Sequence record: DRR378314_1358 | Strand: one strand, 5' to 3' | Length of the DNA stretch: 33,552 bases | In this document: piece by piece, positions 6,067 to 32,260 of the stretch | Layout: the number at the start of each line of letters is the position of its first letter | Position numbering within the stretch: the stretch's first letter is position 1 | Made by a program: the position numbers and the translations under genes | Notes under the pieces: model-generated | The model's input: only the letters and a program-made list of their open reading frames with translations | Databases searched by the model: none | Told to the model about the DNA's origin: nothing

Positions 6067-8073
6067 CTATGATTTCGCCAGAATTATTTTTTCTGATTCC
6101 TTCTCAATGATGTGACGGTAAAACTCTTTGAGGTCGGCATAATAATGTGCCGGAATTATAGGACTGTTCAGTGCCGTTTCCACGCTTGCACTTATTACAT
6201 TATGAGTGGCCGAAATATTAAACCTAAACTGGCCTAGATTCTCTGGCAATGCGACGGCAATAGGCTCAGGAATGGATTCAACCGCATACCCTTCTGGAAT
6301 ATTGATGGATATGATATACTTGTCCTGCCATGGATAGCCATAATCGATTGGGTATTCCCTTTTCTCCATTTTAAAGGGATTTTCCCTTGTGGTCAGGTGA
6401 AATAAAGGAGATAGGTAGATTTTACCACCAATATTTTCATAACCCACCTCTTTTTCAAATTCATAAGATTGAACAACTGGCTTATAGAGGTCTTTGGCAT
6501 TCTTAAGGTCAAAGTTTGAAATTTCTAAATCAACATACTTTTTTTCCAATTCATCCAAATAGGAATCTTCGGACCCACTGGTATAGTTGTTTCTAAAAAC
6601 AAAGGCGTTGTTGGCTGTATATTGCTGCCTATACTTTCCCCTGATAGACCCATCTTCATTTAAATCAACAACCATCATAATTGCATCCAAAGATTTGGTT
6701 TTCGGCATTAGGTTTACCTGACTGGAACTACCATCGTCACGAATCAACCTACCAAACCAATTTAAAGCGCGCATTGGCAAAACATCCGGTAGAGCGTTTT
6801 TATCCGTGGCATCAAACAACATAAAATCATTTTGAGTTTGAAGCCCTGCGACCACATAGTTAAATCCATTCCTCGTTGGGAAAATTGGTATTCCATGTGA
6901 TCGGGTACTTACCAATACGGGATTTGCTTCAAGACCTGCATACCGGAACATCGCTGTAAGCATTAGATTGATTTCGGCAACATTCCCAACTCCTTCTTTA
7001 TAAGCTTTTCTAACACCTTGACTGCATCCTACGCCAGTATAACCATCCCAGTTCATTTTAGATTTTACATGTTGAAAAATAGCGATTGCCTTTTCCTTAT
7101 CTGTTGACAATCCTGATATCAGCTGATCTACCTCATCATCAAAATAGTTTTCCCTGTTCAATTCATTTCCAAAATCATCATAATCGTATATGGACTTTGC
7201 CACATCCTCCCAAGTCAAGCTATAATTTTTATAAGGGCTGTTGGGAAAACGTGTTGATGCCAATTCGAACTTCATAGATGCCCTAAAATTATCGATATTA
7301 CTGGTATACTTTTCATCTAGCAAAGCTGGAATGTTAGACACGCCAATATTGTATACGTTTTCAAAAAAATCCAAGGAACCCGTTTTATGCGTGCTCTTGG
7401 CAGACCATCCCGATCCATCCGAACTTCTATAGGTAACATGCAAAGATCTATTTTCTTTGGACTGTTTAACTGATATGGGTTGGGTGCCTCTACTATATTG
7501 TTTAAAGATAAAGTACTCAGGGATGTTCAACTGTGCCTCTGCCTGGTCCACTGGTATATCATATTGGAGCCTAAACTCATCAATATGCCAGAACATGGGT
7601 GAAGTTATCTTGTACTCAATATCCAAAACACTGCCCTCCCGCACCTCTGGCATTGTAATGGATGCTTTGTTCCTGTATTTATTTACTTCCTCGATAAAAA
7701 CACCGTCCTTTTTAAGTTTTTGACTGACCACCTTCCCATTTTCCAGGTTAAATGTGTATCCTTTTACCGAACCAATGTCTTCTCTATCGCTACTGGAAAC
7801 ATATAGTGGTACTTGTAGGGTTGCCCAATCAAAGCCCTCTTTGTTATATATTTTGATGCGAAAGTGTACTTCCCGTATTTGTGACCAACCGGTTTCGGAT
7901 TGATAATTATATCTAACCCATTCTTTTTTATGAAGAATTGCCGCCTCGGCCTCTGGATAAGTGGCGTGCTGTTTGGCAGCTACCTCTTCCTTGGATACCT
8001 TTCCAAATTTAATCTCATTGGCGCTTGTTGCTTGCTGAACCAGCAAGAGCAGAAAAAACAGTCTTAATCTCAT
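6067..8073 (-). CDS. Secreted DUF3857 / transglutaminase-like protein, catalytic Cys and His replaced
   Basis: Signal peptide, TMPEVREGSVLDIEY, GNVAEIN / FNYVVA / LFDATD; clear paralogue of 4095-6056. Confidence 0.85.
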   Translation of the reverse strand: MRLRLFFLLLLVQQATSANEIKFGKVSKEEVAAKQHATYPEAEAAILHKKEWVRYNYQSETGWSQIREVHFRIKIYNKEGFDWATLQVPLYVSSSDREDIGSVKGYTFNLENGKVVSQKLKKDGVFIEEVNKYRNKASITMPEVREGSVLDIEYKITSPMFWHIDEFRLQYDIPVDQAEAQLNIPEYFIFKQYSRGTQPISVKQSKENRSLHVTYRSSDGSGWSAKSTHKTGSLDFFENVYNIGVSNIPALLDEKYTSNIDNFRASMKFELASTRFPNSPYKNYSLTWEDVAKSIYDYDDFGNELNRENYFDDEVDQLISGLSTDKEKAIAIFQHVKSKMNWDGYTGVGCSQGVRKAYKEGVGNVAEINLMLTAMFRYAGLEANPVLVSTRSHGIPIFPTRNGFNYVVAGLQTQNDFMLFDATDKNALPDVLPMRALNWFGRLIRDDGSSSQVNLMPKTKSLDAIMMVVDLNEDGSIRGKYRQQYTANNAFVFRNNYTSGSEDSYLDELEKKYVDLEISNFDLKNAKDLYKPVVQSYEFEKEVGYENIGGKIYLSPLFHLTTRENPFKMEKREYPIDYGYPWQDKYIISINIPEGYAVESIPEPIAVALPENLGQFRFNISATHNVISASVETALNSPIIPAHYYADLKEFYRHIIEKESEKIILAKS

Positions 8074-12877: not shown

Positions 12878-12935
12878 ATAATGCACTGACCCTTCCAGCA
12901 GTCAAAAAGTTATTGGGCCCAACGTCTTAAAAATG

Positions 12936-12961
12936 AGGTATCGACTGCGCTCGACCTGACA
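12936..12961 (-). repeat. YGTCA-tagged palindromic repeat, family A (intergenic)
   Basis: Reverse complement TGTCA-GGT-CGAGCGCAGTCGAT-ACC-T. Confidence 0.85.
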
Positions 12962-13009
12962 ACTTTTTGTTTATATGGTTGATTACGGAAATTCAACTAA
13001 AAAAAACGT

Positions 13010-18644: not shown

Positions 18645-20096
18645 ATGAAGAAGAATACCGCCAGATTGGAACTCTCCAAAGAAGAAATGAAAAGCTATGG
18701 GTATCAGATTATTGATGCCATCGTGGAACATCACGCTACGCAAGACCAAAAATTGCCCGTGGCTTTAGGCTCACGAGAAGAAATGGACTCTTTGTTTCTG
18801 GAGGAAGCTCCCGAACAAGGTGCCGATCCAACCCAAGTACTCGACTTCGTACTGGAAAAAGTGATGACCAACAGCGCCAATATGGCTCACCCAAAGTCAT
18901 TTTCTTTTGTCCCTGGACCTAGCAACTATGTGAGTGTTATGGCCGATGCGCTTGCAACTGGCTACAACATCTTTTCTGGAGGATGGGCTGCCAGTCCTGC
19001 AGCTGCCGAACTGGAAATTGTAACCATCCAATGGCTGTTGAAGATTTTTGGTTTTCCCAAGAAAAAAGGAGGTGGCATCTTTACCAGTGGAGGTTCCATG
19101 GCCAATCTTACCGCAGTTGTTACCGCCCGACGAATAAAATGTGGTGATGATTTTTCCAAAGCGGTCATTTATCTATCCGATCAAGCGCACTCATCCAACA
19201 TTAAAGCCATTCGGGTACTGGGCTTCAAAAAAGAACAGATTAGAATCATTCCTACGGACAGCGAACTCAAGTTTTCTGTAAACAAGTTGAAAAACTGCAT
19301 CGCCAAAGACAGATTGGAAGGTCTTTATCCATTCTGTTTGATTGCTACTGCGGGAACTACCAACACTGGAACGGTTGACCCATTGGTGGAATTGGGCAAA
19401 ATTTGCAAGAAAGAGGATATCTGGTTCCATATTGATGGTGCCTACGGGGGAGCGGCCATCCTATCCCAAAAAGGTAAGCAAGCTATGAAAGGGATTGAAA
19501 AAGCGGATTCCTTGACCGTGGACCCACACAAATGGTTTTTTCAGCCCTATGAAATGGGTTGCCTTTTGGTGCGGAACCACAAAAACCTTAGCCATACCTT
19601 CACCGAAAAGCCTGAATATTTAAGAGATATCGAGGGCAATACTTCTGAAATCAATTTTTATGACCATGGCATCCAATTGACCCGTAGGTTCAGGGCCCTA
19701 AAATTTTATATGTCCCTAAAAACTTTCGGTTTAAAAGAATTCCGAGACGCTATCACCTATAATATTGATTTAGCCGAAGAAGTTGAAACCATGTTGAGAG
19801 GCAGTAAAAGTTGGGAAGTCGTCTTCCCAGCAACCTTGGCGGTCATCAATTTTAGGTACAACCCCATAAGCAAAAATTATTCGGAGAAAGAATTGGACAA
19901 AATCAACCAATACATTTCTGGAAAGGTGGTGGACTCGCGCAAAGCTTTGCTTGTTACCACCATTTTAAATGGGCAGATTGTGCTACGGATGTGCCTGATC
20001 AATCCAAGAACCACTATGAAGGATGTGACCGATACGTTTGACCTCTGCAAAAAGTACGCACTGGAAATTGAGGAGGAGTTGGCAAGTAAGGTTTAG
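18645..20096 (+). CDS. Group II PLP-dependent amino acid decarboxylase (substrate unassigned)
   Basis: GGSMANL, AHSS, AGTTNTG, HIDGAYGG, DPHKW (PLP lysine). Confidence 0.9.
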   Translation: MKKNTARLELSKEEMKSYGYQIIDAIVEHHATQDQKLPVALGSREEMDSLFLEEAPEQGADPTQVLDFVLEKVMTNSANMAHPKSFSFVPGPSNYVSVMADALATGYNIFSGGWAASPAAAELEIVTIQWLLKIFGFPKKKGGGIFTSGGSMANLTAVVTARRIKCGDDFSKAVIYLSDQAHSSNIKAIRVLGFKKEQIRIIPTDSELKFSVNKLKNCIAKDRLEGLYPFCLIATAGTTNTGTVDPLVELGKICKKEDIWFHIDGAYGGAAILSQKGKQAMKGIEKADSLTVDPHKWFFQPYEMGCLLVRNHKNLSHTFTEKPEYLRDIEGNTSEINFYDHGIQLTRRFRALKFYMSLKTFGLKEFRDAITYNIDLAEEVETMLRGSKSWEVVFPATLAVINFRYNPISKNYSEKELDKINQYISGKVVDSRKALLVTTILNGQIVLRMCLINPRTTMKDVTDTFDLCKKYALEIEEELASKV

Positions 20097-21202
20097 GCCT
20101 TACTATCAAAAATAGCATCAATGGCCAGGTCCAATTCTATTTGGACTTTTGGATCGGTGCAATTAATCAGTATTGCAACCACCTTGTGATGTTCAGGATA
20201 TATAAAAAGATTGGTGTATGCGCCAACGCTACTTCCAACATGTCCTACAAATGCTCTGCCATGATCATCTTGGCTAACTTGAAACCCGAGGCCGTAGTAC
20301 GTTGGTTTACCATCTATGATTTGAGATGTCAATAATTCATCATAGGTTGCTGCCTTTAGCAATTTGCGCTCTAAAATGGCCTGTCCTAGTTGCGCCACAT
20401 CTTCACAGGTGGACAAATATCCGCCACCTGCTAATTTGTAAGCATTGTTTACCTGAACGGCCTTCTTAAAACTTAACGATGTTTTGGTGTAAAATTCTGC
20501 TTTGTTCACGACTTGTGAGTTTATCTTGGGCGTAGTCGAAAGACTCGAACTGACATTTTTTTGTGGTGGGAATGTATTTTTCAATCCCAAAGGCATCAAA
20601 ATACTATCCTTTACATGGTGTTGAAATGATATTCCGCTTGCTTCTTGCATAGCCAAGGACAACAAGACAAAATCAAAACTATTGTAGAGATAACTGGTTC
20701 CGGGCTCAAAAACTAAGGGGTCGTTTTTAAAAATTTCTATTCCCGATTTGATGGAATAATCTTGATTCAAGGCAAATTCCTTGCCCCGATACCCGCGAAT
20801 CCCAGCGGTATGACTTGCCAATTGACGCAGCGTGAAATCATATTTCTTTTTAGGATAATCGGGCACATAGGTGTAAAAGGATTCGTCCAAATACACGATT
20901 CCATCCTCCACCATTTTTCCCAAAGCCAATCCCGTGATACATTTAGAAATACTGGCAATGCGGAAAACCGTATGTTTTGGGTCAACTTGGATCCTCTTTT
21001 CCAAACCGGCAAAACCATATCCTTTTTGAAGCACCTTTTCACCCCTATCCAAAATGGTCACGGCCAAACCGGGCACTTTTTTTTCCGCTACCAGATTGTG
21101 AAAAAGGACATCCGCTTTTTCCAAGCCGTTTAATCCGCCCAATGGTTTGACTTTTGGAGGTGTTGAAAACAGATTTTTGATATGTGCGATAAGATTTCCC
21201 AA
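20093..21202 (-). CDS. Serine hydrolase, beta-lactamase/AmpC family
   Basis: FRIASISK (SxxK), LASHTAG, YLYNS (YxS), HVG; 4-bp convergent overlap with decarboxylase. Confidence 0.9.
   Translation of the reverse strand: MGNLIAHIKNLFSTPPKVKPLGGLNGLEKADVLFHNLVAEKKVPGLAVTILDRGEKVLQKGYGFAGLEKRIQVDPKHTVFRIASISKCITGLALGKMVEDGIVYLDESFYTYVPDYPKKKYDFTLRQLASHTAGIRGYRGKEFALNQDYSIKSGIEIFKNDPLVFEPGTSYLYNSFDFVLLSLAMQEASGISFQHHVKDSILMPLGLKNTFPPQKNVSSSLSTTPKINSQVVNKAEFYTKTSLSFKKAVQVNNAYKLAGGGYLSTCEDVAQLGQAILERKLLKAATYDELLTSQIIDGKPTYYGLGFQVSQDDHGRAFVGHVGSSVGAYTNLFIYPEHHKVVAILINCTDPKVQIELDLAIDAIFDSKA
20519..20555. repeat. Decayed, collapsed family A repeat doublet inside the serine hydrolase CDS
   Basis: GTTTA-TCT-TGGGCGTAGTCGAA-AGA followed by half copy CTCGAACTGACA. 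Confidence 0.65.
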
Positions 21203-21277: not shown

Positions 21278-22081
21278 TTAGTCTTGGAAAATCAATCTTC
21301 CAGTAAACAACTCCTCCACATCCACTTCGGGTGGTGTATTGACACTGATTAAATCGCCTGTACCACGTAGTATACCTCTCAATTGTTGTTGCGGATTCAC
21401 AAAAACATCATTGGAGCCCCTGTGGTTGACATTCACATTTTCTGAAATTAGACGCTCCGCTTCAATTCTTGAATCCCCGGCAGCTACCGTAACATTGAAA
21501 TTTTCCGTATTTCCTCGCAACTCGAAATAGGCTATGCCATTCACCACGACTCTGACCGTGTTTGAATTCAAATTCAAATCAAACGAACCATCGGTTGTAG
21601 CGGCCTCTGGATTATTAAAACTTTCGGCTATCAAATTAATACTTGGAAAATTCAAGATACCATCACTGGAAATCAGCAAACCTGTACTGCTTCGGATTTC
21701 TGTAATGTTTGGAGAAGTAACGTACACCGTTGTCAATTCGTAATCCCTCACAAAGTTGCAACTGTTTTTATTTCTAAGCACTAGGCGATTATCCTCCACC
21801 ACAGCAGAAAAATCGTTTAAGAGATATTCACCTGTTTCCACTTCAACCAGTTGCTCATCACCTTGTTTTAAAACTACATTCAGGTTTTCAAAGACCGTAA
21901 TGGTTTCAAATTCGGGTACATCAACTGGCCGCCGCACCATATCGCCTGCATTTTGAAAACAATCTGGAACGTTGTCGCCATTGCAGGAAATCAGTATTAG
22001 AAATATTGCCAACAAAAAGTACCTCTCGACTGGGCTCGAGGTGACATTCTTTAACGGAAATAAACTTCTAAATTCTAACAT
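21278..22081 (-). CDS. Head GIN domain (DUF2807) lipoprotein
   Basis: Lipobox ILISC, PEFETITV, repeated S/G-x-G strands; N-region extended by a repeat. Confidence 0.85.
   Translation of the reverse strand: MLEFRSLFPLKNVTSSPVERYFLLAIFLILISCNGDNVPDCFQNAGDMVRRPVDVPEFETITVFENLNVVLKQGDEQLVEVETGEYLLNDFSAVVEDNRLVLRNKNSCNFVRDYELTTVYVTSPNITEIRSSTGLLISSDGILNFPSINLIAESFNNPEAATTDGSFDLNLNSNTVRVVVNGIAYFELRGNTENFNVTVAAGDSRIEAERLISENVNVNHRGSNDVFVNPQQQLRGILRGTGDLISVNTPPEVDVEELFTGRLIFQD
22020..22047 (-). repeat. Family A repeat inside lipoprotein signal peptide
   Basis: TACCTCTCGACTGGGCTCGAGGTGACAT, 27/28 identical to 24844-24871. Confidence 0.9.
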
Positions 22082-23209: not shown

Positions 23210-24163
23210 TTAAAAAAGTTCCTTGGCTATTGCCTCAACATTATCCGATTTTCCCATGGAATAATAATGCAGTACAGGAACACCCGCTTTCCTTAATTCC
23301 ATGGACTGCTGAATGGCCCACTCAATTCCGACTTGACGCACTGCCTTGTTGTTATCACAGGCCTCGACCGCATCAATAAGATCTTGTGGAAGATCTACTC
23401 GAAATACTTGTGGCAGTAATTGGAGGTGTCTTTTAACGGCAATGGGTTTTATCCCCGGGATAATCGGCACATCGATGCCCATTTCGCGTGCCTCTTTTAC
23501 AAAGGCGAAGAATTTCTGATTATCAAAAAACATCTGTGTCACCACATAATCCGCTCCTAAATCCACTTTTTGCTTCAAACGCTTTAAATCGGATTGCAAA
23601 GAGGGTGCTTCCATATGCTTTTCAGGATAACCTGCCACACCGATACAAAAACTGCTCAAATCACTGGATTCAATGGTATCGTGCAAATAATTGCCCTCGT
23701 TGATGTTTTGAATCTGCTCTACCAAGTCCGTGGCATATTGGTGTCCACCTTTGGTGGGCGTAAAATATTTTTCCTCTTTTCGGGCATCACCACGAAGCGC
23801 CATCACATTTTCAATTTCCAGATATTGACAGTCCACCAATAAATATTCGGTCTCCTCTTTGGTAAAACCACCACAAAGCACATGAGGTACCGTGTCCACA
23901 TTATATTTATGTTTCAATGAGGCACAAATGCCCAAAGTCCCTGGACGGGTACGAGTCAATTTTTTGTCCAACAGTCCATCTTTCTCTTTGTAGACATACT
24001 CTTCCCTGGAAGTGGTCACATCAATAAACGGAGGCTTGAACTCCATCAAAGGATCGATATTTTTGTACAACTCTTGGATACTCTTACCTTTTACGGGCGG
24101 CACTATTTCAAAACTGAAAAGGGTCTCTCCGTTTGCTTTTTTTATGTGGTCGGTAATTTTCAT
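23210..24163 (-). CDS. metF: Methylenetetrahydrofolate reductase
   Basis: SFEIVPP, ALRGD, VAGYPEKH, VTQMFFD, IIPGI, HYYSM. Confidence 0.96.
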   Translation of the reverse strand: MKITDHIKKANGETLFSFEIVPPVKGKSIQELYKNIDPLMEFKPPFIDVTTSREEYVYKEKDGLLDKKLTRTRPGTLGICASLKHKYNVDTVPHVLCGGFTKEETEYLLVDCQYLEIENVMALRGDARKEEKYFTPTKGGHQYATDLVEQIQNINEGNYLHDTIESSDLSSFCIGVAGYPEKHMEAPSLQSDLKRLKQKVDLGADYVVTQMFFDNQKFFAFVKEAREMGIDVPIIPGIKPIAVKRHLQLLPQVFRVDLPQDLIDAVEACDNNKAVRQVGIEWAIQQSMELRKAGVPVLHYYSMGKSDNVEAIAKELF

Positions 24164-24166
24164 TGG

Positions 24167-26923
24167 TTATTCATCAACAATATTGGGAGCCAGCCATTTT
24201 TGGGCCTCCTCCAGTTTCATATTTTTTCGTTCAGCAAAATCCTGAACCTGATCTTGCTTTATTTTTCCCAATCCAAAATATTTGGCCTGTGGGTGTCCAA
24301 AATAATAGCCGCTAACACTGGCAGCAGGCCACATGGCCAAACTATCGGTCAGCTTTACCCCTATTTTCTCTTCTACGTCCATCATATCCCAAATGGTGAG
24401 TTTCTCCAAGTGGTCCGGACAGGCCGGGTACCCTGGCGCTGGACGTATTCCTTGGTATTTTTCCTTGATCAGCTCCGTGTTGTCCAAGTTTTCATCGACC
24501 GCGTAGCCCCAATATTTGGTTCGCACTTCTTTATGCAGATACTCTGCAAAAGCTTCCGCAAATCTATCGGCCAAAGCTTTGATCATGATGGAATTGTAAT
24601 CATCGTGATTTTTTTCGAATTCAGCGGCCAATTCCTGTGTTCCAAATCCTGTACTTACGCAAAAGCAGCCTATGTAATCCTGAATCCCCGAATCCTTGGG
24701 GGCGATAAAATCTGCCAATGCGATATTGGGAACTCCTTCCCGCTTTTTCAACTGTTGGCGAAGTGTTCTAAAAATGAAGGTTTCTGCTTCATCCGTCATT
24801 TCGAGCGCAGTCGAGAAATCTGAAGAAGCTTTATTTTTCTCTCTACCTCTCGACTGCGCTCGAGGTGACATACGCACTTCTATATCATCCTCATCAATTT
24901 GATTGGCAGGAAACAGTCCAAAAATAGCTTTGGCCTTCAAAAGTTTTTCATCCAACACTTTTTTCAAAAGCTCTTTGGCATCGGCAAAAAGTTCTTTGGC
25001 TTGCTCTCCAACGACCTCATCGGTCAAAATATCGGGGTATTTTCCGTGCAAATCCCAGCTTCGGAAGAACGGGGACCAATCGATATAGTCCTCCAATTGG
25101 GTCAGGTCAAAATCTTCCCAAACTTCAATGCCCAATTGGTTTGGTTTTTTAATGTCCGATGGATTCCACTCGATTTGAAGCTTGTTCTTTCTGGCCTGTT
25201 CCAAGGTCAAATATTCCTTTTGCTTGCCGCGTTTCAAAAACTTATCCCTGAAACTCTCGTAATCCAGTTTGATGGATTTTTTATAACCCGCAGAAGTTTC
25301 ATCCTGAAGTAAATCCCCCACCACCGTTACCGCTCTGGACGCATCGTTCACGTGCACCACAGCTTGACTGTATTTCGGGTCGATTTTTACCGCAGTATGG
25401 GCCTTGCTGGTTGTGGCTCCCCCGATCAAAAGAGGCACATCAAAGTTCTGGCGTTCCATCTCCTTGGCCAAAAACACCATTTCGTCCAAAGAAGGGGTGA
25501 TCAATCCGCTCAAACCGATTATATCCACTTGTTCTTCCTTTGCCTTATTGATGATTTTTTCGGGCGGCACCATAACTCCCATGTCCACAATGGCATAGTT
25601 GTTACAGGCCAATACAACACTTACAATGTTCTTTCCAATATCGTGCACATCTCCTTTCACCGTTGCCATTAATATCTTTCCTGCCGGTTTTGACTTTTCA
25701 TCCTTCGCCGCTTCAATAAACGGGGTAAGGTAGGCCACGGCCTTTTTCATCACCCGAGCAGATTTCACTACTTGGGGCAAGAACATTTTTCCGCTTCCGA
25801 ACAAGTCCCCGACCACATTCATACCTGTCATTAAGTTGCCCTCGATTACGTGCAGGGGTTTGGCGGCCTGTTGACGGGCTTCTTCCACATCTTCAATGAT
25901 GTATTGGTCTATTCCCTTAACCAAGGCACGGGTAATACGGTCTTGTAGCGGCTCTTCTCTCCAAGTCAAGTCTACTTTGCTTTCCTTTGCTGTTCCCACA
26001 ACAGTTTCGGCAAACTCCAGTAAACGTTCGGTGGCATCGTCCCGCCTATCCAACAACACATCTTCCACATACTCCAGTAGATCTTTTGGAATGTCATCGT
26101 ACACCTCCAACATCGTCGGGTTTACAATCCCGATGTTCATACCCGCTTTTATAGCATGGAACAGAAAAGCTGAATTAATGGCCTCTCGGACAGGATTATT
26201 CCCTCTAAACGAGAAAGAAACATTGCTCACTCCCCCACTTACACTACAATACGGTAGATTTTCCTTTACCCAGCGGGTTCCCTCAATAAAATCGACGGCA
26301 TTTCGTCGATGTTCTTCCATTCCCGTGGCCACTGGGAAAATATTCAAATCGAAAATGATATCCTCTGGAGGAAACTTTACTTTGTTGACCAATACATCAT
26401 AAGACCGCTTGGCAATTTCAATCCGACGTTCCAAATCATCGGCTTGCCCAACTTCATCAAAGGCCATAACAATGACTGCGGCGCCATATCGCTTAATCAA
26501 TTTGGCGTGGCGGATAAACTCTTCTTCTCCTTCCTTTAGACTGATGGAGTTTACCACGCATTTACCCTGCACCACCTGAAGTCCAGCTTCGATGATTTCC
26601 CATTTGGAACTATCGATCATAATGGGCACTCGTGCAATATCGGGCTCGGAAACGATCAAGTTCAAAAACTTGACCATGGCTTTTTTACCATCGATCAGGC
26701 CATCATCCATATTCACATCGATGATCTGGGCACCACCCTCCACCTGATCTCGGGCAACATCCAAGGCTTCGTCGAACTTTTCTTCTTTAATGAGCCTCAA
26801 AAACCGCTTGGAACCTGCCACATTGGTACGCTCCCCCACATTGATGAAATTACTTTCCGGGGTAATGACCAAGGGCTCGAGGCCTGAGAGTTTTAAGTAT
26901 CGTTTTTCGTTGTTCGTTGCCAT
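24167..26923 (-). CDS. metH: Methionine synthase, pterin-binding + B12-binding + activation domains
   Basis: [53 protein letters not shown]; carries an in-frame repeat insertion. Confidence 0.96.
24795..24869. repeat. Family A inverted doublet (REPIN-like), 75 bp, in frame within metH
   Basis: GTCA-TT-TCGAGCGCAGTCGAGA ... TCTCGACTGCGCTCGA-GG-TGAC. Confidence 0.93.
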
Positions 26924-26927
26924 AAAC

Positions 26928-27935
26928 TTAAACTATGCTGGAGTCAAAAAGTTTTCTAGGTTCATAATCCTTTACCACATCGGCAATGGCCTTAATATGT
27001 TCTGGAGTGGTACCGCAGCATCCGCCGACAATGTTCACCAATCCTTTTTCCACATATTCTTTGATCTGGACGGCCATCTGCTCAGGCGTTTCGTCGTATT
27101 CGCCAAAGGCGTTGGGCAATCCTGCATTCGGGTGCGCCGAAATGGCATATGCTGATTTTGCTGAAACCACCTCCAAATGGGGCACCAATTGTTTGGCTCC
27201 CAAAGCACAATTGAATCCAACGGATAAAATGGGAATATGGGAAATGGAAATCAAAAAGGCCTCTGCCGTTTGTCCGGACAATGTTCTTCCCGAAGCGTCG
27301 GTAATGGTGCCGCTGACCATTACAGGCACTTCTATATTTCGTTCGTCTTTTACTTCTTCTATGGCAAAAAGGGCTGCTTTGGCATTGAGGGTGTCAAAAA
27401 TGGTCTCGACCAGTAGCAGGTCGACCCCACCATCCAGTAATGCCTCTACTTGTTGTTTGTAGGCTATTCGGAGTTCATCAAAAGATATGGCTCGGAAACC
27501 TGGGTCGTTCACATCTGGGGACATACTGGCCGTTTTGTTTGTTGGCCCTATACTTCCTGCTACAAATCTAGGTTTGCTTAGGTCTTTTTGCGTGAATTCC
27601 TGAGCTACCTGCTTGGCAAGCTTCGCCGATTCATAATTCAGTTCGTACACCAATTCTTCCATGCCATAATCGGCCATGGCTATGGTGGTACCGGAAAACG
27701 TATTGGTCTCGATAATATCGGCACCTGCTTCCAAAAATTTCCGATGGACTTCTTTAACGGCCTCGGGCTGCGTTAAGGACAACAAATCGTTGTTGCCCTG
27801 CAGATCGCTGGGCCAATCTTTGAATCCCTCTCCCCTAAAATCAGCTTCTTGGAATTTATAGCGCTGCAACATGGTGCCCATGGCCCCATCCAGTACTAAA
27901 ATTCGCTTCTTCAATATGTCTTCAATTTTTTCCAT
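26928..27935 (-). CDS. metH: Methionine synthase, homocysteine-binding domain (split metH N-terminal part)
   Basis: [48 protein letters not shown] at 27935. Confidence 0.95.
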
Positions 27936-28010
27936 AGTACAATTTCCCTTCAAAAAAAAGGATGTAGTGCAATCAAGAAAAGTGCGTAGGTACTGTGCTG
28001 AATACTTTAC

Positions 28011-28149
28011 GTTATCCTTCCCCTTACAGGTTAAACTTCCTAAAACGCCTTGAAAACCAGTTCAAGACAAGGGTAGAATGTAGCACCTTCTCGAAGTCGA
28101 GGGTTGCTAAGGCTTCACAGGGTCCAATCCCTCCACCTTTCTTGATAAC
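28011..28149 (-). ncRNA. SAM-I (S-box) riboswitch
   Basis: P1 GTTATC/GATAAC, ATCAAGA, kink-turn P2 GGTGGAGGGATTGGACCCTGTGAAGCC, AGCAACC...GGTGCTA-ATTC; directly upstream of metH-metF. Confidence 0.95.
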
Positions 28150-28177
28150 ACCATCAATTTATAAATGAACTGAACTA

Positions 28178-28264: not shown

Positions 28265-29326
28265 TTAATTGATGCTTTGCACCACTTCTTTTTTTGCTTC
28301 TTTTTTAGAGCCATCAAATCCTTGTACACCTCCAACAGTGGTATATTTCATCACATATCGCTTATCTGGGTTGATGATTTGATAGGCAAATTGGCACATT
28401 ACGGCTGCTTCGTGGAATCCGGACAGAATCAACTTGAGCTTTCCTGGATACGTATTGACATCCCCAATGGCGAACACCCCTGGGAGATTGGTCTGGTAAT
28501 CTTTTGCGTTGTTCACCTTGATGGCATTTTTTTCTATTTCCAGTCCCCAATTGCCCAATGGGCCCAATTTTGGTGACAATCCGAACAAGGGAATAAAGAA
28601 ATCGGTTTCCACATACGATGCTTCCTTGTCTTCATCGTTGTACTTGATGACAACGGCGTGCAAATCTTCTTTGCCGTGGATTTCCTTTACCTCAGCCTTC
28701 GTGAACAATTGAATCTTGCCCAATTTGGCCAGTTCCCGTGCTTTTTCCACAGAGTCCAGTGCTCCTCGGAATTCATTTCTACGGTGCACCAAGGAAACTT
28801 CAGAAGCTACATCGGCCAAGAAAATGGCCCAATCCAATGCGGAATCTCCTCCCCCGGAAATCACCACTTTTTTATCACGGAACTGTTCTGGGTCTTTGAC
28901 CATATACTCAACTCCTTTGCTTTCAAAGAGCCCAATATTCGGAATCATTGGTTTTCTGGGCTCAAAAGAACCGAGTCCACCGGCAATTACAACAACTGGT
29001 GCGTGGTGCTGCGTTCCCTTGTTTGTGGTAACGATATAGGAACCGTCTTCTTGCTTGTCCAAGGTTTCCGCACGCTCTCCCAAGGTAAAACCAGGCTCGA
29101 ACGGTTTGATCTGTTCCATTAGGTTATCCACCAATGTACCTGCTAAAATTTCTGGGTAGGCTGGAATATCATATATAGGTTTCTTCGGATAGATTTCTGA
29201 GCACTGCCCTCCAGGCTGAGCCAGAGCATCGATTAAATGACATTTTAACTTGAGCAACCCTGCTTCAAATACAGTAAACAATCCTGTTGGTCCTGCTCCG
29301 ATTATAATGATATCTGTTTTGATCAT
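28265..29326 (-). CDS. Ferredoxin-NADP+ reductase, thioredoxin-reductase-like (YumC type)
   Basis: GAGPTG, YPKKPIYDIP, GGGDSALD, HRRNEFR, AIGD; no CxxC. Confidence 0.88.
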   Translation of the reverse strand: MIKTDIIIIGAGPTGLFTVFEAGLLKLKCHLIDALAQPGGQCSEIYPKKPIYDIPAYPEILAGTLVDNLMEQIKPFEPGFTLGERAETLDKQEDGSYIVTTNKGTQHHAPVVVIAGGLGSFEPRKPMIPNIGLFESKGVEYMVKDPEQFRDKKVVISGGGDSALDWAIFLADVASEVSLVHRRNEFRGALDSVEKARELAKLGKIQLFTKAEVKEIHGKEDLHAVVIKYNDEDKEASYVETDFFIPLFGLSPKLGPLGNWGLEIEKNAIKVNNAKDYQTNLPGVFAIGDVNTYPGKLKLILSGFHEAAVMCQFAYQIINPDKRYVMKYTTVGGVQGFDGSKKEAKKEVVQSIN

Positions 29327-29353
29327 AATTCTCCTTTTAAATAGTCTTGAAGT

Positions 29354-29379
29354 CCCCTTCGACTGCGCTCAGGGTGACA
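29354..29379 (-). repeat. Family A repeat (intergenic, inside operon)
   Basis: Reverse complement TGTCA-CCC-TGAGCGCAGTCGAA-GGG. Confidence 0.88.
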
Positions 29380-29400
29380 TAATTTGACCTGAATCTTGAT

Positions 29401-30177
29401 TTATATATTCTCTAGCAATTTTTTTCCCTGATGTTGATATTCGTTTTGAATATCCAATACTGTTTGACGGTGATTGACCACTTCGCCGATAACTATGATG
29501 GCCGGATTGGACAACTGCTGCTCCTTTGCCTTGTGCTCAATTGAAGCAACAGTGCCAATACCGATTTTTTCGTTTTCCGTAGTTCCATTCTGAATAATGG
29601 CGACTGGAATCTCTCTTTTTCCTTCTTCTTTGAAGAGTTCCATGATTTCCCCAAGTTTGGACATTCCCATGAGGATAATCACGGTGGCGTTGGATTTTGC
29701 CGCCAAGGCCACATCCTTTGACAATTTGTGTTCCTTGGTAGTTCCGGTAATGACCCAAAAACTTTCGGCCGCACCTCTTTTGGTCACGGGGATATTTTGG
29801 GAAGCCGGCACCGATACGGAGGATGAGATTCCAGGGACCACGGCCACTTCAATGCCATAACGTGATGCGTGTTCCATTTCTTCCGCTCCTCTTCCAAACA
29901 CAAAGGGGTCACCTCCTTTTAATCGGACTACTTGTAATCCATGGGTTGCACGTTCCACAATCAAATCGTTGATTTGTTCTTGTTGATAGGAATAGCATCC
30001 TTTGCGCTTTCCCACAAAGATTTTTTCGGCATTCGGGGCATACTCCAATAACTCTGTGGACACCAATGCATCGTACAAAACCACATCCGCCGTCTGCAAG
30101 GCTTTAACTCCTTTCAGCGTTATCAAATCCACATCGCCCGGGCCTGCACCCACTACTGTTAACTTTCCGCTATACAT
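29401..30177 (-). CDS. cobA: Uroporphyrinogen-III C-methyltransferase (siroheme synthesis)
   Basis: VGAGPGD, VLYDALV, RLKGGDPFVFGRG, VPGISS. Confidence 0.93.
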   Translation of the reverse strand: MYSGKLTVVGAGPGDVDLITLKGVKALQTADVVLYDALVSTELLEYAPNAEKIFVGKRKGCYSYQQEQINDLIVERATHGLQVVRLKGGDPFVFGRGAEEMEHASRYGIEVAVVPGISSSVSVPASQNIPVTKRGAAESFWVITGTTKEHKLSKDVALAAKSNATVIILMGMSKLGEIMELFKEEGKREIPVAIIQNGTTENEKIGIGTVASIEHKAKEQQLSNPAIIVIGEVVNHRQTVLDIQNEYQHQGKKLLENI

Positions 30178-32260
30178 GTTCCAACTCCATTTTTCTGAAC
30201 GCCTCCAACTTCTTCAATACGGTTTTTGCATCTTCCAAGTAGCTTTTTGCAAAGGCTTCGGATGGTTCGTTCTTGTTCAACTGAAGGGCTACTTCTCCAA
30301 ACCCGCCCTCGAAGGCTATTTTTCCTTCTTCCACATACAGCCTATCAAAATCCCTGATGATGCTTGCATGGGTATTGACCTTTACTTTTTCCGCCGTTAA
30401 TAATGCCTTGGCAGAATTCACAATGGATTGATAGGAGTAGTAAATACTTGCCGCCCATTTTCCTTCATTGATGGCCTCTTCTGCATTTTCTATCTTCTCT
30501 TGGCTTTCCAGGAACAAGGTGGCCACTAAGTCAACAATGACACCTGCACATTCCCCGATTCCTATCTCCTTTTTGTATTTTTCCTCATTGCCCCAATCGA
30601 TAAAATCGTCTTGGGTCAGATTGTCCACATCCGTTAAAGGTTTAAGGAAATCATAGAAATAAATCTGTCCTTTTTCCTCGTAATAATCGGTAAAGGATGA
30701 TCCGTTTCCGTTGGCTTCAAAATCATCCAAAATGAGACGCAAGGCTTGTGGACCTCTTTTACTTGGGATTTTGGCAACTTTATCGGCAAATCTTGCTTTA
30801 CCATCACCAAAATTTCCTCCTCCCAACAAAACCTGAAGGGCAGGCGCCACCAATTTATCCTTGGTTCTTACGGACATTCCTTGGAACCCGATGTGGGCCA
30901 TATTGTGCTGTCCGCACGCATTCATACAACCGCTAATCTTGATGACAACATCTGGATTTTTGATGTAATGTGGGTATTCGGCTTTAATAACCCGTTCCAG
31001 CTCATCGGCGATTCCTGTACTGCTGGCAATACCTAAATTACAGGTATCCGTACCTGGGCAGGCTGTGATATCCAACGCTTTATTATACCCTGCTTCGGCA
31101 AAGCCTAATTTCTTTAGTTCTTGGTAAAAGAAAGGAACCAATTCCTCCTTCACAAAAGGAATCAATATGTTTTGCCTGAGGGACAAACGAATCTCCCCAG
31201 CGGCATAGTCCTGTACCAGTTTGGCCAACTTACGAGCTTTGTCCGTATAGAAATCTCCCAAAAGTACTTTAATACCAATGGCCGCGTAGCCTTCTTGTTT
31301 TTGGGGAACCAAGTTGGTAGACTTCCATTGTTCGAAAGCTTCTTGGTCCTCTATGGAAACTTCCGGTGTTTCAACCTCAGCTACTTTTACTTCAGGATAA
31401 TCGGCAATATTGATCGGATAGGTTTGATGAGGCACAGCCAATTGTTCTTCTTGAAGCAATTTTTTGAAACCATCAAGTCCCAAATCTTTCAACAAAAACT
31501 TCATTCTGGCTTTAGCCCTACTCTTACGTTCTCCGTATCTATCAAACACACGGATAACGCCTTCCATCAAAGGAATAATTTTATCTGTCTGTAAAAAGCT
31601 GTACAGTTCATCGGCGTGACGCGGTTGTGAACCCAATCCACCGGCCAACATTACTTTAAAACCTCTCTCACCATTTTTTTCTTTGGCAATAAAACCGAGA
31701 TCGTGCATATAGGAAAGTCCTGTATCGGCATCACTCGCAGAAAATGAAACCTTGAACTTTCGTCCCATTTCCTGACCGATGGGGTTTCTTAAAAAATATT
31801 CGAAAACCGCTTGCGCGTAAGGAGAAACGTCGAAAGGCTCATCCACATCGATTCCTGCTGTTTCGCTAGCCGTTACATTACGAACCGTATTTCCACAAGC
31901 TTCCCGGATGGTTACTTCATCCCTTTCCAATTGTGCCCAAAGCTCAGGGGTACGTTCTAAATCCACATAGTGAATTTGAATGTCCTGACGGGTAGTGATA
32001 TGCAATCGTCCTCTGGAATATTCGTCGGAAACGTCGGCAATCCGGAGCAATTGATTTGAGCTTACCTTTCCGTAAGGCAACTTGATTCGAATCATTTGCA
32101 CACCTTGCTGACGCTGACCATAAACACCACGGGCCAATCGTAGACTTCGGAATTTTTCTTCATCTACATTTCCACCTTTGAACTCTCGGATTTTTTTATC
32201 CAATTCAATGATGTCCTTTTCTACAACTGGGTTTTCTATCTCTGTTCTAAAACTTTGCAT
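30170..32260 (-). CDS. Siroheme/[4Fe-4S] sulfite (nitrite/sulfite family) reductase with C-terminal HEPN-like domain
   Basis: TTRQDIQ, CGNTVRN, RKFK, ACPGTDTC and GCMNACG ligands; C-terminal helical extension; follows cysN. Confidence 0.9.
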   Translation of the reverse strand: MQSFRTEIENPVVEKDIIELDKKIREFKGGNVDEEKFRSLRLARGVYGQRQQGVQMIRIKLPYGKVSSNQLLRIADVSDEYSRGRLHITTRQDIQIHYVDLERTPELWAQLERDEVTIREACGNTVRNVTASETAGIDVDEPFDVSPYAQAVFEYFLRNPIGQEMGRKFKVSFSASDADTGLSYMHDLGFIAKEKNGERGFKVMLAGGLGSQPRHADELYSFLQTDKIIPLMEGVIRVFDRYGERKSRAKARMKFLLKDLGLDGFKKLLQEEQLAVPHQTYPINIADYPEVKVAEVETPEVSIEDQEAFEQWKSTNLVPQKQEGYAAIGIKVLLGDFYTDKARKLAKLVQDYAAGEIRLSLRQNILIPFVKEELVPFFYQELKKLGFAEAGYNKALDITACPGTDTCNLGIASSTGIADELERVIKAEYPHYIKNPDVVIKISGCMNACGQHNMAHIGFQGMSVRTKDKLVAPALQVLLGGGNFGDGKARFADKVAKIPSKRGPQALRLILDDFEANGNGSSFTDYYEEKGQIYFYDFLKPLTDVDNLTQDDFIDWGNEEKYKKEIGIGECAGVIVDLVATLFLESQEKIENAEEAINEGKWAASIYYSYQSIVNSAKALLTAEKVKVNTHASIIRDFDRLYVEEGKIAFEGGFGEVALQLNKNEPSEAFAKSYLEDAKTVLKKLEAFRKMELEHV

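Follow-up and report, generated by a model that had tools for sequence, protein, structure and literature searches.

An inverted doublet of short hairpin repeats translated within flavobacterial methionine synthase, probably a tolerated REP-like element

The window analysed here, a stretch of 33,552 nucleotides from the sequence record DRR378314_1358, carries in its methionine synthase gene metH a 75-nt inverted doublet, which is translated in frame and sits in a β-hairpin turn of the MetH activation domain, where it adds about 26 residues. The doublet is a head-outward pair of short hairpin repeats, each with a GTCA head, a variable and complementary stem and an invariant apex, and the repeat family to which both units belong is dispersed in Flavobacteriaceae genomes, between genes as well as in frame inside genes. 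[quoted passage not shown] For MetH the insert is most likely neutral baggage and not a working part.

The inverted doublet inside metH and its repeat family

By direct reading, the 75-nt element starts with GTCA and ends with TGAC. A repeat search gave two 22-nt arms, 24795-24816 and 24848-24869, which are 91% complementary and separated by 31 nt, and the inner 16 nt of the arms are perfect (TCGAGCGCAGTCGAGA / TCTCGACTGCGCTCGA); the 75-bp palindrome with perfect 16-nt arms, which a sequence-only reading of the window had described, was thus confirmed and its arms turned out to be longer. Both mismatches between the arms fall on the two variable bases beside the core, which are TT in one arm and CC in the other. 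Because these are exactly the variable stem bases of the family, the doublet consists of two distinct units with their heads outward. In the mRNA sense (minus strand), the 95 nt around the doublet have a predicted fold of -46 kcal/mol, as compared with an average of -23.4 for shuffles of the same stretch (z = -6.8), and none of 200 shuffles folded as stably, so a strong hairpin in the metH mRNA is possible, as the same reading had proposed. This hairpin would lie about 630 nt upstream of the metH stop codon and away from the metH-metF junction; no U-tail follows it and the terminator scan did not call it terminator-like. At the gathering score, Rfam 15 matched only the SAM (S-adenosylmethionine) riboswitch in the whole window, and an E-value scan of 24700-24960 returned only sub-threshold matches to miRNA precursors and other generic hairpins. 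Each unit is free of stop codons in five of the six frames, and the whole doublet in three of six.

The metH open reading frame (ORF) is intact, with the insert in frame and all four Pfam domains present (Pterin_bind, B12-binding_2, B12-binding and Met_synt_B12). Its translation places the insert between DDIEV and TLRQQ of the activation domain, the latter preceded by DEAETFIFR, which agrees with the position given in the sequence-only reading. The activation domain (PF02965, Met_synt_B12) was matched over profile positions 1-273 (E 3.5e-122), with 296 residues of the protein against the 273 positions of the profile. The Escherichia coli MetH structure 1MSK was also matched (E 6.5e-106); this HMMER match is split in two at the insert, where 33 query residues face 11 chain residues, and the shorter E. 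coli loop given in the sequence-only reading is thereby supported. The commonest MetH form among the 120 relatives listed has 892 residues and reads DDIEV-DKDG-ETFIF, and the window protein exceeds it by 26 residues at exactly this loop, so this stretch counts as an insertion when compared with other MetH proteins.

An AlphaFold2 model of the activation domain was built from a 56-sequence alignment (mean predicted local distance difference test score (pLDDT) 75, predicted template modelling score (pTM) 0.77; residue n of the domain is residue n + 599 of the protein). In this model, the insert has strands on either side (81-86 and 115-119), residues 88-95 form a short helix, and pLDDT values fall below 50 at residues 94-110. 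The modelled insert is therefore placed at the tip of a β-hairpin with low confidence, in line with the exposed loop suggested earlier, and the extra loop of MetH is probably disordered. A second low-confidence stretch, at residues 207-238, is unconnected with the insert, and because of it the model is moderately reliable at best. The short peptides encoded by the units, together with the ATG of ATGTCA, can mislead calls of gene starts and the assignment of domain boundaries.

The comparison DNA consisted of 80 metH neighbourhoods with a total of 1.59 Mb, and the copy numbers given here refer to these neighbourhoods, not to whole genomes. The 16-mer core was found four times in the window when up to three mismatches were allowed, against 0.07 expected, and none of 100 shuffles reached four; with up to two mismatches, 35 arms were found in 20 of the 80 loci. 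The unit consensus has about 25 nt and is composed of (T)GTCA, two variable bases, TCGAGCGCAGTCGAGA and two complementary bases, with the GTCA head present in 27 of the 35 aligned units. The stem bases covary: the pair 7-26 is GC in 14 units, CG in 11, UA in 5 and UG in 2, with 3 unpaired, and the pair 8-25 is UA in 18, CG in 9, GC in 2 and UG in 2, with 4 unpaired. Altogether 90.4% of the stem cells are paired, sliding the partners lowers this to 25-50%, and the covariation score was reached by none of 500 shuffles, although many of the aligned rows are orthologous, so that fewer independent events underlie these counts than they suggest. The stems at different sites nevertheless fall into at least six classes. 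The apex of 12 nt, GAGCG(C/A)AGTCGA, is invariant across genera while the stems covary; it was found five times in the window with up to one mismatch (0.12 expected) and exactly in 23 of the 80 loci. Ten of the 43 exact-apex copies lie across no open frame of at least 150 aa and the remainder are mostly at gene ends, in a sample biased towards one neighbourhood; the clear mid-gene sites are the MetH loop and a loop of a β-lactamase-family serine hydrolase (ORF 20093..21202). The coordinates in the window are summarized in Table 1.

Table 1. Units of the repeat family and genes of the metH operon in the window
Feature	Position	Strand	Remarks
Inverted doublet, two hairpin units head-outward plus spacer	24795..24869	-	75 nt, translated in frame inside MetH
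Unit 1 (mRNA sense), GTCA-CC-TCGAGCGCAGTCGAGA-GGT	24845..24869	-	Read as SPRAQSRG
Spacer between units	24821..24844	-	A/G-rich in mRNA sense; species-variable; length constant in full doublets
Unit 2, GTCA-TT-TCGAGCGCAGTCGAGA-AATC	24795..24820	+	mRNA strand reads DFSTALEM
Decayed unit-within-unit composite, read in frame (NVSSSLSTTPKINSQVVNK)	20504..20554	-	Loop of serine hydrolase ORF 20093..21202
Solo unit, core with 1 mismatch (16-mer 22024-22039)	22018..22047	-	After PagL-like gene, then T-run
Solo unit, GTCA-GG-core-CC, 1 mismatch (16-mer 12939-12954)	12933..12962	-	Intergenic, then TTTTT
Stem variant (TGTCACCCTGAGCGCAGTCGAAGGGGAC), same 12-nt apex	29350..29380	-	About 30 nt upstream of ORF 28265..29326
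Host gene, MetH without homocysteine-binding domain (pterin-binding, B12-binding and activation domains), 918 aa	24167..26923	-	
Separate homocysteine S-methyltransferase-domain ORF, other half of split MetH	26928..27953	-	Domain match
SAM riboswitch upstream of operon	28009..28151	-	RF00162, 72 bits, E 3.6e-15
metF (methylenetetrahydrofolate reductase), directly downstream of metH	23210..24163	-	Domain match

The copies outside metH differ in their settings. The unit that follows the PagL-like gene was scored terminator-like at 22025-22040; the longest DUF2807 ORF (21278..22081) shares its first 20 codons with this unit and may truly start downstream, before a lipoprotein-like LISC motif. The unit at 12933-12962 lies between a 3-deoxy-D-arabino-heptulosonate 7-phosphate synthase/chorismate mutase gene and a DUF2807 gene, and no locus aligned across this site. 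The stem variant has the form CCCT-GAGCGCAGTCGA-AGGG with the common apex, and it is nested in an outer hairpin upstream of the oxidoreductase ORF 28265..29326. Locus L042, from a Maribacter metagenome-assembled genome (MAG), has two copies of the unit as an inverted doublet between genes (6623-6693), with nearly equal arms and a spacer of 23 nt. Units also supply gene ends: at L056 9258, L064 9951 (Tamlana), L065 9673 (Hyunsoonleella), L068 9134 and L075 1457, the homocysteine-methyltransferase ORF immediately upstream of metH ends in codons formed by a unit (…VTLSAVEKSL*). Where single units fall inside open frames, as in the loops of MetH and the hydrolase and at the DUF2807 5' end, they are nearly always read as V-x-S-S-A-V-E, and frames 2 and 3 are rare.

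Forms and age of the MetH loop

By MetH identity, the window protein groups with Muricauda, Allomuricauda and Flagellimonas. Five loop forms were recognized in the Muricauda/Flagellimonas group from the alignment of the 120 relatives and confirmed in the DNA of the loci: an empty loop (EVDKDGETF), one forward unit (+6 aa, read VVSSSAVE), two forward units in tandem (P0009 and P0013), the inverted doublet (+26 aa), and a doublet with a shortened middle (+17 aa), which is found in 30 rows of one clade. The loop is empty in 66 of 141 rows, including rows with near-identical backbones. On a FastTree phylogeny of the 141 rows, built without the loop columns, the full doublet requires 10 state changes, 8 of them forced by starred branches, and the empty state requires 15, of which 11 are forced; an IQ-TREE phylogeny of 57 rows likewise gave 10 changes for the doublet state and 15 for the empty one. 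Forcing 20 doublet carriers into one clade cost 903 log-likelihood units (approximately unbiased test, p-AU 1.4e-49), this group of carriers having been named after the tree was seen. The doublet is thus found in at least 10 separate branches of the MetH tree of this group; for example, P0007 has the doublet among 17 empty rows, and L009 has it while its sister L012 is empty. All forms coexist in the genus, and the loop is a structurally unstable site over evolutionary time.

The doublets are homologous, as shown by their common frame and flanks and by a 7-aa spacer with residual similarity. Lineages that carry the same-frame doublet with homologous 21-nt spacers differ at about 48% of the metH third positions, and since the doublets are homologous at such divergence, the insertion predates the split of the carrier lineages. 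Sequence comparison thus indicates that the insertion is old, neither private to this genome nor recent, and the earlier suggestion of a recent insertion was not sustained, given this divergence and the number of branches involved. Between the window and L009, L010 and L014, the third-position identity of the whole gene without the insert is 0.51-0.53, as compared with 9/9 in arm 1, 8-9/10 in arm 2 and 3/7 in the spacer, where 11-13 of 21 nt are identical. The spacer therefore drifts at about the synonymous rate of the gene, and the arms are almost invariant at synonymous sites. Unit 1 is the same in L003, L009, L010 and L014 except for the base preceding the head, and in L003, whose protein is 98% identical, the whole doublet is unchanged.

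As for the other direction of change, the empty allele of L012 resembles a deletion between GAAGTG and GAAATG, and its flanks are divergent, which suggests recombination. The native MetH site reads GTTGAC or GTTGTCA, which is suggestive of GTCA as an insertion target. Orthologous sites that are 'empty' of the unit nearly always hold another hairpin.

Turnover at shared sites and alternative explanations

The same loops are used by other palindromic families. A single unit of the present family occupies the MetH loop of Croceitalea L053, of the MAG L075 and of the Maribacter MAG L042, and in L022, L028, L029 and L030 the loop holds a C-rich palindrome, GTCTCCCCCTTGGGGGGAGA, for which a pattern search gave three distinct orthologous sites but no convincing copy in the window. 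A third palindrome, CCTTCGG...CCGAAGG, was confined to the MetH loop of L038 and L042 and thus gave no evidence of dispersal. In the Polaribacter loci L055 and L057, the MetH loop holds a composite of about 90 nt; these inserts of about 30 aa (L055 6518-6694 and L057 6243-6413) look like a unit-like hairpin, the apex of which holds a second, AT-rich hairpin.

A comparable series exists in the serine hydrolase. Its loop is empty in L002 and L013, carries a single unit (DVSSSAVENK) in L006, L017, L008, L004 and L016, and a decayed unit in L009, L011, L012 and L014; in L028, L029 and L038 it holds stem variants in other frames. In L003, L010 and the window (20504-20554), one unit is nested inside another, and these nested copies are direct evidence that one unit can insert into another. 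Nearly every species also has a hairpin at each of two intergenic positions, following the PagL-like gene and upstream of ORF 28265..29326, with the family changing from one species to another; for the second position, the orthologous spots of L001-L017 were compared.

[quoted passage not shown] This step is modelled on the REP/RAYT pairs and on the Bacteroidetes RAYT subclasses whose REPs lack GT[AG]G, as far as they are covered by the portion of PMC6006769 consulted. Units would land preferentially at or in existing hairpins, and such a preference would explain why the same loops and spots hold different families in different species and why units are nested in units. Copies surviving inside genes would be those that keep the frame, bring no stop codon and sit in a permissive loop, and the long palindrome may then be lost repeatedly by deletion or replaced through recombination.

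Several observations weigh against this explanation. No Y1_Tnp domain was found among the 28 ORFs of the window scanned against Pfam, and a regular expression for HUH...Y gave no match in the window or the 80 metH loci, which is a crude pattern whose blank result means little; the transposase check covered the 33.5-kb window and the metH neighbourhoods, and no protein-database search for RAYT was made. In place of the GT[AG]G or CGTC head known from the described REP superfamilies, the units have GTCA. The flanks of the doublet, GTGCGTAT and GGATGAAG, have no direct repeat in common, so no target duplication is visible, and no insertion event was caught between near-identical genomes. The doublets of metH and L042 have unrelated spacers and are therefore not copies of one mobile doublet. 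When longer proteins were searched by words with a 40-aa stretch of the insert, the 32 candidates yielded 20 hits, each of them a MetH, so an in-frame doublet of the exact metH form was not seen in other proteins, although such a blank is weak evidence. Moreover, 38 of the 43 exact-apex copies, many of them orthologous, share the strand of metH and of the neighbouring genes that run in its direction, and this bias could reflect selection at the RNA level instead of a bias of insertion. The near-invariance of the arms at synonymous sites is unlike a neutral, decaying passenger and points to constraint or conversion.

The strongest competitor, which we consider possible though hardly probable, is that a single insertion gave the doublet to the ancestor of the genus, all other forms having arisen by deletion or recombination, without re-insertion and without targeting of hairpins. 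The common frame, flanks and spacer of the full doublets are as expected from a single event, two basal rows (P0072 and P0110) have the doublet, and the deletion-like empty allele of L012 with its divergent flanks would illustrate the loss. However, the single unit differs from the doublet in its frame and in its stem bases (GT/AC instead of CC/GG) and is therefore not a simple deletion product of it. Unrelated palindromic families in the same loop of other genera, and units nested in units, where new copies have landed in old ones, also disagree with a history of loss alone.

It is less likely that the units are kept by selection for a function of the nucleic acid, so that the metH copy would be useful and not merely tolerated. 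Such a function could be a binding site for a host protein, a signal for processing, stability or pausing in the metH message, or a terminator at the intergenic copies. Arms that are conserved while the spacer drifts, the invariant apex with covarying stems, the co-orientation of exact-apex copies with genes and the predicted stability of the hairpin would all fit, as would the T-runs behind the solo units that follow genes, one of which was scored terminator-like; the arm invariance, the strand bias and the T-runs keep this explanation alive. On the other hand, the insert is wholly absent from most close relatives, near-identical backbones included. In L009 and L010 the changes in arm 2 are uncompensated, and at the protein level this arm is shortened in the 30-row class, so the long hairpin is not maintained, and the in-gene copies of the hydrolase decay in several lineages. 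The lack of any Rfam family and of terminator features at the doublet argues in the same direction.

A function of the 26 extra residues in MetH itself, for example as a docking or regulatory loop for a reactivation partner, is unlikely, and we give it very little weight. The insert does lie in the domain that handles reductive reactivation (PF02965), and the peptides encoded by the arms, SPRAQSRG and a second one of 10 residues, are conserved across the doublet carriers. But this conservation reaches synonymous positions, and the same nucleotides are also found in non-coding DNA or in other frames (VSSSAVE and HPERSRR). The middle of the insert is hypervariable, the model leaves the insert at low confidence, and close relatives, other genera and E. 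coli manage without it.

Long palindromes can also arise by template switching or by duplication-inversion during replication, and the arms of the doublet do form such a palindrome, but a local origin of this kind, outside any repeat family, can be practically dismissed: it is contradicted by the copies of the 16-mer in the window and in 20 of the 80 loci, where the identical sequence with the same head stands at unrelated loci and in other genera, and by arms that differ exactly at the stem bases variable among family members.

As an extension of the tolerated REP-like or RPE-like element, we tentatively suggest that certain loops and intergenic spots in Flavobacteriaceae are long-lived landing pads: after one hairpin unit has settled, later ones, whether of its own or of unrelated palindromic families, would insert at it, enter it or replace it. 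This might include the holding of units at the nucleotide level by a need other than that of the protein, such as a hairpin-recognising enzyme or a host factor binding the apex. Such landing pads, if real, would amount to a hairpin-targeted and frame-tolerant turnover of repeats inside essential genes.

Relation to known palindromic repeats and neighbouring genes

In-frame palindromic repeats are known as textbook oddities of Rickettsia. The RPEs are reportedly palindromes found in frame in many protein genes, at sites compatible with fold and function, and are said to be translated. RPE-1 has 100-150 bp and is not known outside Rickettsia. The present element is similar in that it is inserted in frame and leaves the host protein gene intact, whereas its unit has only about 25 nt and several repeat families use the same loop across genera; a sequence relationship with RPEs is not expected.

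The closest precedents are intragenic REPs. According to the part of the study by Di Nocera, De Gregorio and Rocco (2013, PMC3733652) available to us, REPs of the GTAG and CGTC superfamilies are short palindromes, present as singletons and inverted dimers, which are mostly intergenic. Housekeeping genes carry some of them in frame. Dimers or groups that encode 20-30 aa make up over half of the inserts within genes, and the authors judged the inserts to be tolerated and not functional; in-frame RPEs (Ogata et al. 2000 and 2002) are cited there as a further precedent. The family described here agrees with REPs in being a short imperfect palindrome (about 20-40 nt in REPs) with many copies and a common consensus, and in forming inverted doublets with short spacers, which are unrelated between metH and L042. 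It departs from them in the tetranucleotide at the 5' foot of the hairpin, in its Flavobacteriaceae hosts, in an apex that is invariant while the stem varies, and in its host genes, which are those of MetH and a serine hydrolase instead of the DNA-repair genes emphasised in the accessible text of PMC3733652. Atypical REPs without GT[AG]G are known, as the portion of PMC6006769 consulted assigns such REPs to the Bacteroidetes RAYT subclasses 2.4 and 2.6, and it also mentions in-frame REPs inside tnpA_REP genes.

The inverted pair of REPs with a variable spacer and a long vertical persistence resembles the REPIN-RAYT system, as described in the sections of Bertels and Rainey (2011, PMC3116915) at hand. 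The doublet as the unit of movement is not demonstrated here, because the two doublets have unrelated spacers and unequal arms. Transposable elements of the miniature inverted-repeat class (MITEs) were also considered. Small non-autonomous palindromic elements of this type can add coding sequence in Coxiella burnetii (PMC5896051, in the excerpt available), and MITEs are given as 70-300 bp in length with terminal inverted repeats and target duplications (PMC3733652, same portion). Our doublet has inverted arms, but it shows no target duplication and is built of two autonomous-looking hairpin units, so it does not qualify as a MITE.

Searches of the literature on palindromic repeats of Flavobacteria and Bacteroidetes did not find this family described, though the supplementary lists of PMC3733652 and PMC6006769 may include it. 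When the 12-nt apex and its variants were searched as literature text, they were present in 25 papers, of which the 15 listed were unrelated by title (14 on animal or human biology and one on a Pseudomonas enzyme), and in the RepRanger paper Flavobacterium appears only in a genome table. Intragenic REP dimers and in-frame RPEs are already known, and the doublet is of that kind; what differs here is the GTCA head, the host clade, the invariant apex with a variable stem, and the use of the same loops by several families.

In-frame palindromic repeats have been catalogued mainly for the GTAG and CGTC REPs, and the present case extends them to free-living marine Flavobacteriaceae, to a central metabolic enzyme and to a different repeat family. 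The MetH loop offers a rich natural series, with empty, single, tandem, inverted and shortened forms and with other families, which is usable for studying how such elements arrive, persist and are lost, how a protein absorbs inserts, and what function may stand behind the conservation of the arms. Two questions stand out, namely the reason for this conservation and the reuse of the same loops by several families.

The operon itself is encoded on the minus strand throughout, in the order SAM riboswitch, homocysteine-binding ORF, pterin/B12/activation ORF and metF. Elsewhere in the window, a sulfite/nitrite reductase ORF (30170..32260, minus strand) has a C-terminal match to a HEPN domain (E 3e-6), which would be an unusual fusion.

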